Source: Escherichia phage JP4
Sequence record: PQ330092
Length of the DNA: 64,000 nt
Reading direction: 5' to 3' (one strand)
The notes beneath the pieces are model-generated. The model worked only from the letters and a program-made list of their open reading frames with translations. It was not told the DNA's origin and ran no database searches. This document shows, in pieces, positions 20,512 through 34,554 of the stretch. The first letter of the stretch is position 1, and each line of letters starts with the position of its first letter. The position numbers were made by a program, and so were the translations under genes.

Positions 20512-20703
20512 ATGTTGATTTATCAAAGTGATAATATTCGTGTTATGCAGCATCCCTACTTACAAATCTTTGATGTGCAGCAGTATATGGAAGGTGATGA
20601 CCCAAGAACCTATGGTCGTAAGTATGATTACTTCACTGTAAAGCAGTGTAAAAATATTAACGAAGTACGACAATTAGTTCAAGAACTTCAAAACAAAGGT
20701 TGA
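20512..20703 (+). CDS. hypothetical protein
   Basis: ATG 20512 after aagga SD preferred over overlapping track start 20458; TGA stop lies inside the terminator stem. Confidence 0.45.
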   Translation: MLIYQSDNIRVMQHPYLQIFDVQQYMEGDDPRTYGRKYDYFTVKQCKNINEVRQLVQELQNKG

Positions 20704-20729
20704 CTTCGGTCAGCCTTTTTTGTTATAAT
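20698..20729 (+). promoter_or_regulatory. fused terminator-promoter module (UUCG hairpin, T-run, -10 box)
   Basis: ggttgacttcggtcagcc hairpin, T6, then TATAAT 18 nt after TTGACT in the stem. Confidence 0.6.
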
Positions 20730-20757
20730 TCTCTTAATAAATTAGAGGATTTTAATT

Positions 20758-21198
20758 ATGTATGTATATCGTTTTGAACTTAAATTTAGTTACATTGAAC
20801 CTAACTTAGATCCTGCACGAACTGTAGGTCCGTTTGCACGGTATTCAACTAGATACAGTACTAAAAATGGATTTGACCGTTTGCTTATGACTACACCTTC
20901 TCAATTCCAACCTGAACCAACTGAGGATGGGATCTATTCAATCAAAAGTGGATGGGTATTTGGCTGTCAAAGTTTGAAAGATTTGTTCAGATTCTTCACT
21001 ATGGACTTGGGTAAATTGCATCGTGCTGGGTTTGCTATATCTGTATATGAAGTTCCAGACCACCATGTAGACATTGGTCGTAATCAGGTTCAGTACTATT
21101 GCGGTAGTGCTAAATTAGTTCGTATCATGTCAGTTAAGGAAGCAAAGGATGAGTTCCGACAAAGTAAAAGAGAAACACATGAGGTAATATATGGATAA
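20758..21198 (+). CDS. hypothetical protein
   Basis: 146-aa ORF with gagga SD. Confidence 0.55.
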   Translation: MYVYRFELKFSYIEPNLDPARTVGPFARYSTRYSTKNGFDRLLMTTPSQFQPEPTEDGIYSIKSGWVFGCQSLKDLFRFFTMDLGKLHRAGFAISVYEVPDHHVDIGRNQVQYYCGSAKLVRIMSVKEAKDEFRQSKRETHEVIYG

Positions 21199-21535
21199 AA
21201 CTCAAATAGAATTAAAGAAATTTGTTTCATTCTATTTTCCTGATGACCCACGTAATTCACAAAAAGATATTGAATATTATAATATCCTATCTAAACAGTT
21301 AATGAGAAAGTTTCAACAGTGTTTAACTATATTCAATACAGATGGAAGACGTAGATACCGAATCGTTTCAATGAATGATGAAAACGCAAATTTCTTTGAT
21401 TACGATGTAGTTTTTAGAGCATATAATGATGATCGTATAAAATTAAATTATGATCAAATTATACTTGACCTGAATGTTATATGTGTTATAATCACTCACG
21501 TAGCCGAACTTAATGGTTTTAAAGAATGGTATTGA
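21191..21535 (+). CDS. hypothetical protein
   Basis: 114-aa ORF. Confidence 0.5.
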   Translation: MDKTQIELKKFVSFYFPDDPRNSQKDIEYYNILSKQLMRKFQQCLTIFNTDGRRRYRIVSMNDENANFFDYDVVFRAYNDDRIKLNYDQIILDLNVICVIITHVAELNGFKEWY

Positions 21536-21549
21536 ATAGAGGATAACAT

Positions 21550-21816
21550 ATGAAGCTTAAATTACAATATAATGGATTTACTTTACGTAATGATACTGAA
21601 TTTATTAATCGTTCTCCTGGTGCTGAACTGTTTTTACGAGAGATGAACATTCCTTTCATCATTACTACAGTGGGCGACCGTGAAGTTCTACAATATGCAG
21701 AGCATCCGATTATTGATGTTCCTTGGTACTCTGAGCATATGTACATGGATATGGCACGTCGCTACAACTGTAAGTTCGTAGTTGAAGGTGATAAAATTAC
21801 AGTCGAATTTAAATAA
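21550..21816 (+). CDS. hypothetical protein
   Basis: 88-aa ORF with gagga SD. Confidence 0.5.
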   Translation: MKLKLQYNGFTLRNDTEFINRSPGAELFLREMNIPFIITTVGDREVLQYAEHPIIDVPWYSEHMYMDMARRYNCKFVVEGDKITVEFK

Positions 21817-21828
21817 GGTAAATTAAAA

Positions 21829-22122
21829 ATGATCAGTACTTCAGTTAATGAAAGCATCGTCGCTGACGTAGAAATGGTTAAAGAATGTGCAGATGAAACT
21901 CTTCGTGATATGTACATTAATGATTTAATTACTGAATACGGTAGTCGTGGTGTACACGAATTTATTCGTTTAAGTGGAGAGTTGATGAAAAATCGAATTC
22001 GTATGAAGCTTAACGTACATCCAAAAGCATGGGCATTTACATTAAAATACGCAGAAGATATTGTGAATTTGCGTCGAACTGAAGTATATGAACGTTTGCA
22101 CAATGGTATGTTAGATAAATGA
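21829..22122 (+). CDS. hypothetical protein
   Basis: 97-aa ORF. Confidence 0.55.
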   Translation: MISTSVNESIVADVEMVKECADETLRDMYINDLITEYGSRGVHEFIRLSGELMKNRIRMKLNVHPKAWAFTLKYAEDIVNLRRTEVYERLHNGMLDK

Positions 22123-22130
22123 TTGTAAAA

Positions 22131-32078: not shown

Positions 32079-32438
32079 ATGGCATCTTTAAGTGAAATCG
32101 CAGAATACAACCCACTAACAATCTCAACAATTCAACGTACAAAAACTTTTTATTTCCGTCCTGCTGATGGATGGAAACGTGGAATGAATGGTGACTATCG
32201 AGTACTGGAAGATTCACTCATCGAGCGTATCAACTATGAACTACAGAAGTATGAAGGTGTTAAAGTTGTGCGTTCAACTTCTCGTTATTTTGAGTACTAC
32301 ATTGAGTCTTCAACTGTAAATGAAAACTCATCATTCTCGGTGGACAACACTGATATTCTTCGTAATGCAGTTGGTCTGTTATGCAACATTGCAGAAGAAA
32401 TGGGCTTAACTATTACTACTATGAGTGAATTAGAATAA
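32079..32438 (+). CDS. hypothetical protein
   Basis: 119-aa ORF with gagga SD. Confidence 0.55.
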   Translation: MASLSEIAEYNPLTISTIQRTKTFYFRPADGWKRGMNGDYRVLEDSLIERINYELQKYEGVKVVRSTSRYFEYYIESSTVNENSSFSVDNTDILRNAVGLLCNIAEEMGLTITTMSELE

Positions 32439-32484
32439 CATCAAGGATTCACTTCCCCTCCCATATTTTATATAAGGTGTAAGA

Positions 32485-33096
32485 ATGAAATTAGATGCAA
32501 AATTAGAAGAACTATTGAATACCAATAACTATGAACTTATCAATAAAGATGGGTGGAATTACCTAATTAATGATGATAATATCAAGTACAAATACTTATC
32601 AGATGATGTTATTGAATTTAAACTAATCGACAATTTGTTTGAACATAATATTCTTAGATACAACTTCAATAATAACGAATTTTCGATTGCACAAAAAGTA
32701 AATGTTTCACATCCAGTATGTGGTTTATATATGGTCCCTGATGACAGCGACGAAATTTTTAGTATATTTCCAAACTTGCATTTATTGAATCGTAAAAATA
32801 CCATTTCATATATGAATGATTTGTATTCAGGTATAATCTTCTATCCAAACGGTGATTGGGAAGGTACGTTTGATGTGGATGTTAATGATCGTATTTCTTA
32901 TATCGGAGGTGTATACCAGCATCAAACTGTAGAAAGCAATGAAAACGGTCATGTATCTAGTAATAGTGAAATTATTACTAAAAAATTCACTAACTATCAA
33001 GAGTTTGAAGCATATCTATTCCAATTAGAATCGGTTGAATCTTTCTCTGACTCAGTAGGGTCGGTTGTGAATCTATTACGTGACTACCATAAATGA
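32485..33096 (+). CDS. hypothetical protein
   Basis: 203-aa ORF. Confidence 0.55.
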   Translation: MKLDAKLEELLNTNNYELINKDGWNYLINDDNIKYKYLSDDVIEFKLIDNLFEHNILRYNFNNNEFSIAQKVNVSHPVCGLYMVPDDSDEIFSIFPNLHLLNRKNTISYMNDLYSGIIFYPNGDWEGTFDVDVNDRISYIGGVYQHQTVESNENGHVSSNSEIITKKFTNYQEFEAYLFQLESVESFSDSVGSVVNLLRDYHK

Positions 33097-33107
33097 ATAA
33101 AAATAAA

Positions 33108-33140
33108 GGGTTGACTTCGGTCAGCCTTTTTTGCTATAAT
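33108..33140 (+). promoter_or_regulatory. fused terminator-promoter module
   Basis: gggttgacttcggtcagcc hairpin, T6, TATAAT 18 nt after TTGACT; conserved leader tatttcat. Confidence 0.6.
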
Positions 33141-33166
33141 TATTTCATAAACTCAAGAGGTAATAC

Positions 33167-33403
33167 ATGAAACTATCTTTTATACGTTTAGCAGAATTCT
33201 TCGGTACTGATATTATTACTTTACAACAAATTGCAGACAATACTTCATTAAGTACACAAGAAGTACTTGACTTGGATGTAATTAAGTGCGATAATACTTC
33301 CATCGATTACAAAGAAGGTCTTGTCGAAAAAGATAAGATTCAGGCTAAGATTAATGGTGCTGGACGGGTTCAGTACTGGAAAGGAGTATTAAGTAATGTT
33401 TGA
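33167..33403 (+). CDS. hypothetical protein
   Basis: 78-aa ORF. Confidence 0.5.
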   Translation: MKLSFIRLAEFFGTDIITLQQIADNTSLSTQEVLDLDVIKCDNTSIDYKEGLVEKDKIQAKINGAGRVQYWKGVLSNV

Positions 33404-34514
33404 ACAGTATTATTTAAATGAAGATGGTGAAAAAGTTTATTTTCATGAAGAACTTGGTATGCGTTTTGAATGGATGAAGCCTGAAGATATAAAAAGGGTT
33501 TCAAAAGGACTCACTGCTAAGGATCATGTTGATGACATAGAAGCAAAATTAAAAAACAAAGATATTGACAATATTACTATTATTGGATTATCAGTTAAAT
33601 CATCACGTGAGTTTGGTAAAAACGGAAATAGTAATAACAATTTACTGATTATGTATAATGGGGTATTGTATGATAATTATAAAATAACTGGTTTAAAAAC
33701 AAAGCTTGAAAAAATAACAAACAATAAATTCAAGCCATCATTTACCTATACAGATGAAAATTATTATTACTATGTAACCAAATTGGGTTCTCTTGAGGAA
33801 AGAGGATGCTATATATATGAAAATGAACATTTAGACAATGGGATAATGTCATATATTAAATTCACATATTCCGATGGATTTACACAACCACGAAGAATAA
33901 ATGATATAATTACAAAAAAATCAATGAACGTTAGATATTTTATAACACCTGAAATGCGTGAAACAATTGCTAACACACGCTGTAATGAACTAGGATATAC
34001 ATTAAAAGAAGTTTACAAGAAATCAAATGGTCGTTATTATGTAAAATATATATGTGATAAAGGACACGAGTGTAATCAAGACTATTATGCGTTTACTAGT
34101 AAACAAGCACAAAAATGTGGATGCTGTTCCCAATTAGAAACACACTCATTTGGTCATAATGATTGTAAAGAGTTTTTGAGAGGAATGTTTGTTACTGAAA
34201 GAGAGAAAACATTTCCTGATTTAAAAAATAAATCAAAACTTCCATATGATTTTTATATTCGTGATATTAATACGTTATTTGAATATGATGGTAGTAATCA
34301 CTTTGAAGAACGTGAATCAGGATGGGGAAACGGACTTATGAGGAAAAAACACGATAAAATCAAAACAGAATACGCAATAAAAAATGGATATAACTTCATT
34401 CGTATTGCGTATTATGAAGACCATATTGGAGCATTGAAATCTTTCCTTAAACTCATTGAAGAGAATCCAGGAAAGCAAATCGTGCAGATCTATGGTGAAG
34501 TACAAATTATCTAA
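33396..34514 (+). CDS. putative nuclease with C-terminal PD-(D/E)XK (DUF559/Vsr-like) domain
   Basis: C-terminal PYDFYI..LFEYDGSNHF..DKIK..GYNFIRIAY fits the D..E.K..GxxhhR signature; Cys cluster HECNQ..CGCC upstream. Confidence 0.5.
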   Translation: MFEQYYLNEDGEKVYFHEELGMRFEWMKPEDIKRVSKGLTAKDHVDDIEAKLKNKDIDNITIIGLSVKSSREFGKNGNSNNNLLIMYNGVLYDNYKITGLKTKLEKITNNKFKPSFTYTDENYYYYVTKLGSLEERGCYIYENEHLDNGIMSYIKFTYSDGFTQPRRINDIITKKSMNVRYFITPEMRETIANTRCNELGYTLKEVYKKSNGRYYVKYICDKGHECNQDYYAFTSKQAQKCGCCSQLETHSFGHNDCKEFLRGMFVTEREKTFPDLKNKSKLPYDFYIRDINTLFEYDGSNHFEERESGWGNGLMRKKHDKIKTEYAIKNGYNFIRIAYYEDHIGALKSFLKLIEENPGKQIVQIYGEVQII

Positions 34515-34521
34515 AACAAAA

Positions 34522-34554
34522 GGGTTGACTTCGGTCAGCCCTTTTTGCTATAAT
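34522..34554 (+). promoter_or_regulatory. fused terminator-promoter module
   Basis: gggttgacttcggtcagccc hairpin, T-run, TATAAT 18 nt after TTGACT; conserved leader catttcatc. Confidence 0.6.

Follow-up and report, generated by a model that had tools for sequence, protein, structure and literature searches.

Between positions 20,695 and 34,554 of a 64,000-nucleotide (nt) stretch of Escherichia phage JP4 (sequence record PQ330092; the whole stretch is referred to here as the window), a short hairpin-forming element recurs at one gene junction after another, which raises the question of what a single unit of this size does at so many boundaries. The first-pass annotation, made from the letters alone, described the element as a fused terminator-promoter module that ends one transcript and starts the next, and suggested that it might mark recombination boundaries between gene cassettes. 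The evidence set out below makes it probable that each module is a composite regulatory cassette of the promoter-early stem-loop (PeSL) type, in which one DNA stretch carries two signals. The closest genomes, found by megablast of positions 20000-35000 against 50,697 phage records, are those of Escherichia phages E9.1, SP27, slurp01, 121Q and PBECO4 at 97-99% identity. These are Asteriusvirus jumbo myoviruses of ~350 kb, and the window is 121Q/PBECO4-like.

A search for TTGACTTCGGTCA allowing up to 2 mismatches returned 11 matches in the window against 1.18 expected, and none of 100 shuffled sequences reached 11. Nine of the matches are on the + strand, at 20700, 23943, 24126, 25468, 26553, 31166, 31749, 33111 and 34525. 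Eight copies, all on the + strand, are intact and run in the order A-tract, (G)GGTTGAC-UUCG-GUCAGCC(C), T-run, with a -10 element 17-18 nt past TTGACT in seven of the eight; decayed copies at 31749 and 32442 and a variant at 61915 are imperfect. The unit is ~45-75 nt long and is repeated about ten times, with ten copies falling within 14 kb and this stem occurring nowhere else in the 64 kb. The repeat had been reported before as at least eight copies and a decayed one near 31747, and those coordinates coincide with the present ones once the G clamp is included.

The stem, (G)GGTTGAC / GTCAGCC(C), closes on a 4-nt loop that is mostly UUCG and can be lengthened by A-U pairs between the A- and T-tracts. 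Loops vary (TTCG, TAAG, TACG, ACTA) and stems are kept, and A3-A6 runs stand immediately 5' of the G clamp in every intact copy. TTGACT and the -10 element are 18 nt apart in seven copies and 17 nt apart in the copy at 24126; TGn precedes the -10 element in five. The expectation of TATAAT at 17-18 nt after TTGACT held for the spacing, but the hexamer is exact in four copies only (20700, 31166, 33111, 34525); three others differ by one mismatch each (TATCAT, TATACT, TATGAT), and 25468 has the poor match TAAATA. Every copy is at a gene junction, with a stop codon 0-12 nt before the stem or inside it, and the distance from the -10 element to the ATG is 23-38 nt over the copies and ~28 nt in five. 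The leader CAT/TATTTCAT is common to three copies, as had been noticed earlier. The individual copies are these:

20695 to 20729, + strand: module 1, hairpin AAAGGTTGAC-TTCG-GTCAGCCTTT at 20695-20718, T-run within the 18-nt spacer, TGT, and TATAAT at 20724-20729; the upstream stop codon TGA (20701-20703) is inside both stem and -35 element, and the downstream ATG is at 20758.

23937 to 23972, + strand: module 2, loop TAAG, stem GGGGTTGAC/GTCAGCCC of -17 kcal/mol, weak U-run TTTGTTG, and -10 element TATCAT; the downstream gene is an open reading frame (ORF) of 37 amino acids (aa), 24002 to 24115.

24122 to 24154, + strand: module 3, 17-nt spacer and -10 element TATACT, preceding the virion structural protein gene (ATG at 24178).

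25462 to 25497, + strand: module 4, a complete terminator with a T7 run, and a poor -10 element, TAAATA.

26546 to 26582, + strand: module 5, TGT TATGAT, preceding the gp0.7-like protein kinase gene (probable ATG at 26611).

31158 to 31195, + strand: module 6, loop TACG, hairpin of -19.5 kcal/mol, TGC TATAAT; the stem holds the stop codon TGA of an HNH endonuclease gene (31167-31169), and denV lies downstream (ATG at 31224).

31745 to 31775, + strand: decayed half-module, GTGTTGACTTCGGTTACAC, hairpin of -5 kcal/mol, without T-run or -10 element.

32442 to 32480, + strand: decayed module, promoter-like only, CAAGGATTCACTTCC...TATAAG (TTCACT-17-TATAAG), without a hairpin, at the left junction of a 203-aa ORFan insertion.

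33105 to 33140, + strand: module 7, TGC TATAAT, leader TATTTCATAAAC, with a 78-aa ORF downstream (33167 to 33403).

34518 to 34554, + strand: module 8, TGC TATAAT, leader CATTTCATCAAC; it adjoins the 3' end of an HNH endonuclease gene (33396 to 34514) and lies upstream of an AAA-ATPase-like gene (34583 to 35353).

61915 to 61949, + strand: variant, CCAGTATTGAC-TTATTTT-GTCAGTACTGG followed by CATAAT, with a different clamp and stem and a non-coding stretch downstream.

In the 61915 variant the -35 element is again in the 5' arm of the stem and the G.U wobble pair discussed below is unchanged. The decayed copy near 31747 was thus recovered (at 31749), but the second decayed copy (32442-32480), the variant at 61915-61949 and a composite at 27249 had been overlooked. 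The last of these is of a second type (27249-27277, TTGACA-17-TATTCT): its hairpin, CAGAAC-TGAT-GTTCTG, is located in the spacer, and the protein kinase gene ends with the TGA of its TTGACA (27250-27252), which thus also serves as a stop codon.

The hairpin itself has the build of an intrinsic terminator. The predicted hairpins of the eight intact copies range from -12.4 to -19.5 kcal/mol and carry a C(UUCG)G tetraloop, and a GC-rich stem, a short loop and an adjoining U-tract of at least 5 residues were found, with the U-run interrupted at 23943 and absent at 31749. With canonical intrinsic terminators bearing the C(UUCG)G tetraloop the modules have in common a GC-rich stem of 8-9 bp, which A-U pairs can lengthen, a loop of 4 nt, and a U5-7 tract immediately 3' of the stem. 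They differ in that the 5' arm must spell TTGAC, the U-tract doubles as promoter spacer, and in two copies a stop codon lies in the stem. Terminators are annotated at these hairpins in two GenBank records, those of G17 (by ARNOLD) and UE-S1. The first T of TTGAC is opposite a G; in RNA the two form a G.U pair, and the complementary strand has a C.A mismatch there. Because of this conserved wobble the sense hairpin is 5-7 kcal/mol stabler than the antisense one, and this difference argues for a + strand RNA signal rather than a DNA palindrome.

The alternative, that the inverted repeat is a DNA-level palindromic operator for a dimeric regulator (FNR/CRP-like TTGAC-N4-GTCAA) attached to a promoter, or else a hairpin for RNA processing or stability, is very unlikely. 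The resemblance that suggests an operator is real, since TTGACttcgGTCAA is listed as a Rhodobacter FnrL site and the perfect palindrome GGTTGAC-N4-GTCAACC is also common in viral contigs among the matches listed. The 3' arm of the modules, however, is GTCAG, which is asymmetric in DNA and G.U-paired in RNA, and the loops differ from copy to copy while the stems are retained. With an 18-nt spacer the centre of the palindrome would fall near -29.5 and not at the -41.5 of a class II activator site. A specific FNR/CRP operator (TTGAY-N4-RTCAA, centre near -41.5) was considered and rejected for this asymmetric half-site and this position. Further points against this alternative are the GC clamps of variable length, which co-vary, and the A-tract and U-tract that flank the stem as they do in intrinsic terminators. 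The stem changes found among relatives retain pairing (GTCAG to GTCAA in EcMJ, GTCGG in E9.1), and loops are swapped in CMSTMSU. In a sample of IMG/VR viral sequences, all 87 composite copies keep pairing at the first position beyond the fixed core (GC 71, AT 9, GT 4, TA 3), compared with 85% after shuffling. Neither Rfam (at the gathering threshold, over the whole window) nor ARAGORN gave a match, and the modules are not a known RNA family and not tRNA-derived.

The same letters read as duplex DNA resemble a host promoter. Seven of nine copies match 10-11 of the 12 positions of the TTGACA/TATAAT consensus with a spacer of 17-18 nt, the copies at 25468 and 31749 being the two that fail, and the arrangement of A-tract, -35, TGn and -10 elements is that of strong T4 early promoters. 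The T4 early 'uber' promoters (Hinton 2010, PMC2988021) likewise combine UP, -35, TGn and -10 elements upstream of early genes and are used by the host sigma-70 enzyme; in the modules, by contrast, a TTGACT located within a hairpin serves as -35 element, and the spacer measures 18 nt. The earlier proposal that TTGAC in the stem doubles as a -35 element is supported by its place in the 5' arm at 17-18 nt from the -10 element, often with TGn, and the in-stem stop codons proposed with it are present at the two positions listed for modules 1 and 6. Since the -10 element of module 4 is poor, that copy is probably mainly a terminator.

It is possible to regard the modules as ordinary intrinsic terminators whose likeness to promoters is incidental in an AT-rich genome. 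A generic promoter scan of 20 kb gave 97 promoter-like sites where 100.5 were expected, so that a hexamer match by itself says little, and the copy at 25468 has no good -10 element. What makes this account very improbable is the constancy of the promoter parts. TTGAC is fixed in the 5' arm of all copies, a -10 element follows at a constant 17-18 nt in seven with TGn in five, and the constant ~28 nt from -10 to ATG in five copies fits a start site. Over 10 genomes the module at 20700 is near-invariant from A-tract through TATAAT (one G-to-A change and one T deletion), and the leader directly after it is rewritten or divergent; thus the -10 element is kept where the neighbouring leader diverges. 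Among the IMG/VR sequences sampled, 87 of 183 distinct GGTTGAC-N4-GTCAGCC sites have a T-run plus TAnnnT at 16-19 nt.

Under the composite reading, an RNA arriving from the upstream gene would fold the A-tract, (G)GGUUGAC-UUCG-GUCAGCC(C) and U5-7 into a strand-specific intrinsic terminator, which would end, and probably stabilise at its 3' end, the upstream early transcript. The same DNA as duplex would be recognised by the host sigma-70 RNA polymerase, with the A-tract acting as an UP-like element, TTGACT as the -35 element, the 3' arm and T-run as spacer, then TGn and TATAAT. Transcription would start at the conserved CAT, ~7 nt past the -10 element, and a leader of ~22 nt would run to the Shine-Dalgarno sequence and ATG. 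A transcript initiated at a module would lack that module's own hairpin, and the early region would be split into insulated units of one to a few genes. Termination, promoter strength and start point are deduced here from the sequence, and at that level, together with the comparisons among relatives, the claim that the unit both ends one transcript and starts the next is supported by the terminator features and by promoter elements in register with them. The conserved initial transcribed sequence CATCGAAAC / CATCAAC recurs after the -10 element across genera (in the window at 31196-31215, 33141-33160 and 34555-34575, and at many IMG/VR loci), and it may be the 'TGAAACG' motif taken as an alternative -35 element in the papers on phages CBB and GAP32.

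Whether the modules also delimit exchangeable genes was addressed by aligning the region from 17 to 38 kb of the window with thirteen relatives and chaining the matches; after merging, about 21 distinct indels or replacements remained. The null was that event ends fall at random gene junctions, of which 10 of 43 have a module. Six of the ~21 events have both ends inside modules (binomial p = 6.7e-4 against this null), and each time the genome without the cassette has one chimeric module whose left flank is that of the left copy and whose right flank is that of the right copy. The six events, and the two endonuclease genes that bear on them, are listed below.

23970 to 24109, + strand: event a, cassette A, the 37-aa ORF flanked by modules 2 and 3; UE-S1 and ph0011 lack it and have one chimeric module there, and larger cassettes take its place in EcMJ, CMSTMSU, fEgEco12 and UB.

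25490 to 26533, + strand: event b, cassette B, three small ORFs flanked by modules 4 and 5; UE-S1 and ph0011 lack it too, again with one chimeric module.

Between the decayed 32442 module and module 7: event c, the 203-aa ORFan.

32456 to 34514, + strand: event d, cassettes C and D, comprising the 203-aa ORFan, the 78-aa ORF and an HNH endonuclease gene, bounded by the decayed 32442 module and modules 7 and 8; SP27 and UE-S1 have a single module instead.

At module 6: event e, a 3.35-kb cassette of ph0011 with a DNA methyltransferase and a module on each side, where the window has module 6 only.

After denV: event f, a full module in ph0011 and fEgEco12, where the window has the half-module at 31749 and then 2.8 kb.

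30756 to 31169: HNH gene (phrog_2255, E = 1.8e-32), a free-standing homing endonuclease that ends inside module 6; an internally deleted remnant is retained in E9.1 and slurp01.

33396 to 34514: HNH gene (phrog_559), a free-standing homing endonuclease that ends 4 nt before the A-tract of module 8; relatives have different endonuclease genes in this slot.

These both-ended events and their chimeric junctions support the suggestion, to be checked by comparing gene content among related phages, that the modules act as recombination boundaries. Because many gene junctions share ~45-75 nt of nearly identical sequence, homologous recombination between the copies would delete, insert or replace the genes between them and leave one chimeric module. 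As ph0011 and fEgEco12 have a full module at exactly the junction after denV, the half-module at 31749 would be a recombination scar. The 203-aa ORFan (32485-33096) had no tblastn match in the 50,697 phage records and only two metagenomic relatives, at 100% and 60% identity; the relative at 60%, on a 918-nt contig, is also directly followed by a module variant.

Alternatively, the cassette boundaries could come mainly from the free-standing homing endonucleases: their genes would be inserted beside a module, or the enzymes would cut close to one, with double-strand break repair dragging the flanks along and the modules being mere conserved landmarks. This is possible, if on the unlikely side. 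One HNH gene ends in module 6 and the other just before the A-tract of module 8, the slot upstream of module 8 holds different endonuclease genes in relatives, and E9.1 has the deleted remnant of the first HNH gene, all of which speaks for this account. Four of the six both-ended events, however, involve no endonuclease gene (the 37-aa ORF, three-ORF, 203-aa ORFan and 3.35-kb ph0011 methyltransferase cassettes), and their junctions are clean chimeric modules of the kind that homologous exchange between direct repeats would leave. The two processes are not mutually exclusive.

Several observations weigh against a composite cassette that also serves as a recombination boundary. The copy at 25468 is without a good -10 element, that at 23943 has a weak U-run, and the 18-nt spacer is one above the optimum. 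A ribosome terminating at a stop codon within the stem could impede folding, and termination at 20700 and 31166 may then be partial. The searchable literature holds no transcript-start or transcript-end data for any Asteriusvirus. Counting every event that touches a module at one end or both (8 of the first 17) gives no enrichment over the gene-junction null (p = 0.40), and for that reason this count is not used as support; the enrichment is confined to the both-ended events. The events were merged by hand, and shared ancestry is possible for some. Finally, HNH homing endonuclease genes in two of the variable cassettes provide an alternative route of insertion; since these genes abut modules, endonuclease-driven insertion contributes there.

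The composite reading has a published precedent. PeSLs were described in the T4-type phages RB49/phi1, PST/T4 and nt-1/KVP40 (Arbiol et al. 2010, PMC2839356; Comeau et al. 2014, PMC4122927) as a sigma-70 early promoter plus a stem-loop, with five positional subclasses, one of which has the stem-loop over the -35 element. They are clustered in hyperplastic regions and tied to indels and degraded half copies, and a role in modular shuffling was proposed. Those of RB49/phi1 had terminator and promoter activity in reporter assays, and minicircles were detected (PMC2839356; PMC4122927). The modules match the PeSL order of parts: an upstream stop codon, an AT-rich tract, sigma-70 -35 and -10 elements, a stable stem-loop (often G-run...C-run), a Shine-Dalgarno sequence and a start codon. 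As with PeSLs, the copies are concentrated in a hyperplastic region, each ahead of small ORFans; they bound indels that distinguish close relatives, and degraded 'half' copies stand at junctions. Vibrio phage nt-1, a PeSL phage, has the stem of the modules, GGGTTGAC...GTCAGCCC, including the G.U pair; its sequence reads AAAAGGGTTGAC-AGAT-GTCAGCCCTTTTTT-GTATCAT.

All the structural and comparative features of PeSLs that were tested (promoter, AT tract, position of the stem-loop, intergenic site, clustering, bounded indels) were found in the modules. The published scope of PeSLs is a T4-type host genome, whereas the phage with the modules is an Asteriusvirus (a RaK2/121Q-like jumbo myovirus) and not one of the Straboviridae; this difference concerns the place of first description and not how the element is built. 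The Asteriusvirus family of elements is also unusually uniform compared with PeSLs, having one stem, mostly a UUCG loop, and an 18-nt spacer with TGn. Activity and minicircles are experimental results for RB49/phi1, whereas the Asteriusvirus modules are known from sequence. The modules thus have the PeSL architecture, a concept published since 2010, and it is the extension to the RaK2/121Q jumbo group that is new. The literature on the module sequence and on promoters and terminators of Asteriusvirus and RaK2 yielded only generic MEME and ARNOLD predictions and no paper describing the element there. The paper on phage CBB reports a cluster of 18 RpoD-like promoters, with UP-like elements, among short ORFs, and these are probably the same units as the modules.

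The element is also spread widely among phages. A 60-nt module query matches 179 phage records, with 5-9 matching places in each Asteriusvirus genome. Further matches are in RaK2, K64-1, GAP32, CBB, Munch, fHe-Yen9-04 and Serratia BF, and in KVP40-like vibriophages, Aeromonas phages and Brochothrix phage A9. In IMG/VR, 39 stretches contain the exact 18-mer GGTTGACTTCGGTCAGCC, nearly always with a T-run and a correctly spaced -10 element after it, and six of the seven exact 18-mers of 121Q fall in this same region. A bolder interpretation is that a near-identical ~40-nt cassette, AAAGGGTTGACTTCGGTCAGCCCTTTTTGCTATAAT, is a portable part passed among unrelated phages (RaK2-like jumbo phages, KVP40-like vibriophages, Aeromonas T4-likes and the Gram-positive Brochothrix phage A9) and serves as a homology adaptor for the exchange of ORFans between families; further, RNA polymerase released at the U-tract might re-initiate at the overlapping promoter, which would couple termination to initiation. 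This is unlikely. There are few free choices in such a design: one arm is set by TTGAC and the other by the need to pair with it, the loop UUCG is favoured, and GC clamps and a U-tract are required. Convergence is therefore a sufficient explanation.

The modules are in a long + strand block of small, mostly unnamed ORFs, an early-gene region in a window of ~33% G+C. This block also encodes a T7 gp0.7-like protein kinase, denV and homing endonucleases, a phage sigma-factor gene lies ~8 kb upstream of it, and a - strand array of RCC1-like genes comes after it. Pfam matches among the cassette proteins are limited to denV and the AAA-like domain, and the HNH genes were seen only with PHROGs. At module 4 the gene calls of relatives disagree: a 108-aa ORF from 25452 that reads through the module (25452-25778) is annotated in E9.1, SP27 and phAPEC6, whereas G17, 121Q and slurp01 place the start after the module, at an ATG at 25536 with a Shine-Dalgarno sequence, and the shorter call looks right.

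Other differences among the relatives were seen away from the modules. An indel of ~300 bp inside the virion structural protein gene (24178 to 25455, at 25090-25145) affects five relatives and is not module-bounded. Most relatives have, at the site of 30094-30101, a 252-nt gene (121Q gp214) that the window lacks, as do E9.1 and SD-15_S21; the junction there measures just a few bases and does not involve a module. Tandem paralogous ORFs of ~113-116 aa at 35421-36100, with ~79% DNA identity between copies, vary in copy number among relatives, a pattern consistent with unequal recombination between paralogs. The long - strand array of paralogous genes at 39400-58000, whose products are named RCC1-like 'regulator of chromosome condensation' in the 121Q annotation, coincides with a reversal of GC skew.

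A separate recurrent element, here called the CUAACCC element, occurs within 59800-63800, with its motif at 61974 on the + strand and at 62043, 63575 and 60107 on the - strand. It consists of a strong sigma-70 promoter (often a hairpin module in relatives) followed ~10-25 nt later by a small hairpin that co-varies (GGC/GCC, GACG/CGUC, GACA/UGUC, GGAG/CUCC), with the conserved CUAACCCAYAGGGUGC next. Copies are often convergent pairs ~45-70 nt apart without an ORF, and 61890-62319 is non-coding. Among the sequences examined there are 37 promoter-associated copies. The element had no Rfam match even at E = 1 and its motif appeared in no paper found; it is a candidate for a non-coding RNA, or for a signal close to promoters, in RaK2-like jumbo phages.

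For a poorly annotated phage of 350 kb, the modules would provide a ready map of early transcription units, and they would account for the differences in gene content in this region among genomes that are otherwise 97-99% identical. They could be used as an annotation landmark and as a compact insulating part in synthetic constructs. The same compact design, often with the same 18-mer, occurs across phages of very different hosts, and the composite reading would extend the PeSL shuffling model from the T4-type phages to the RaK2/121Q jumbo group.

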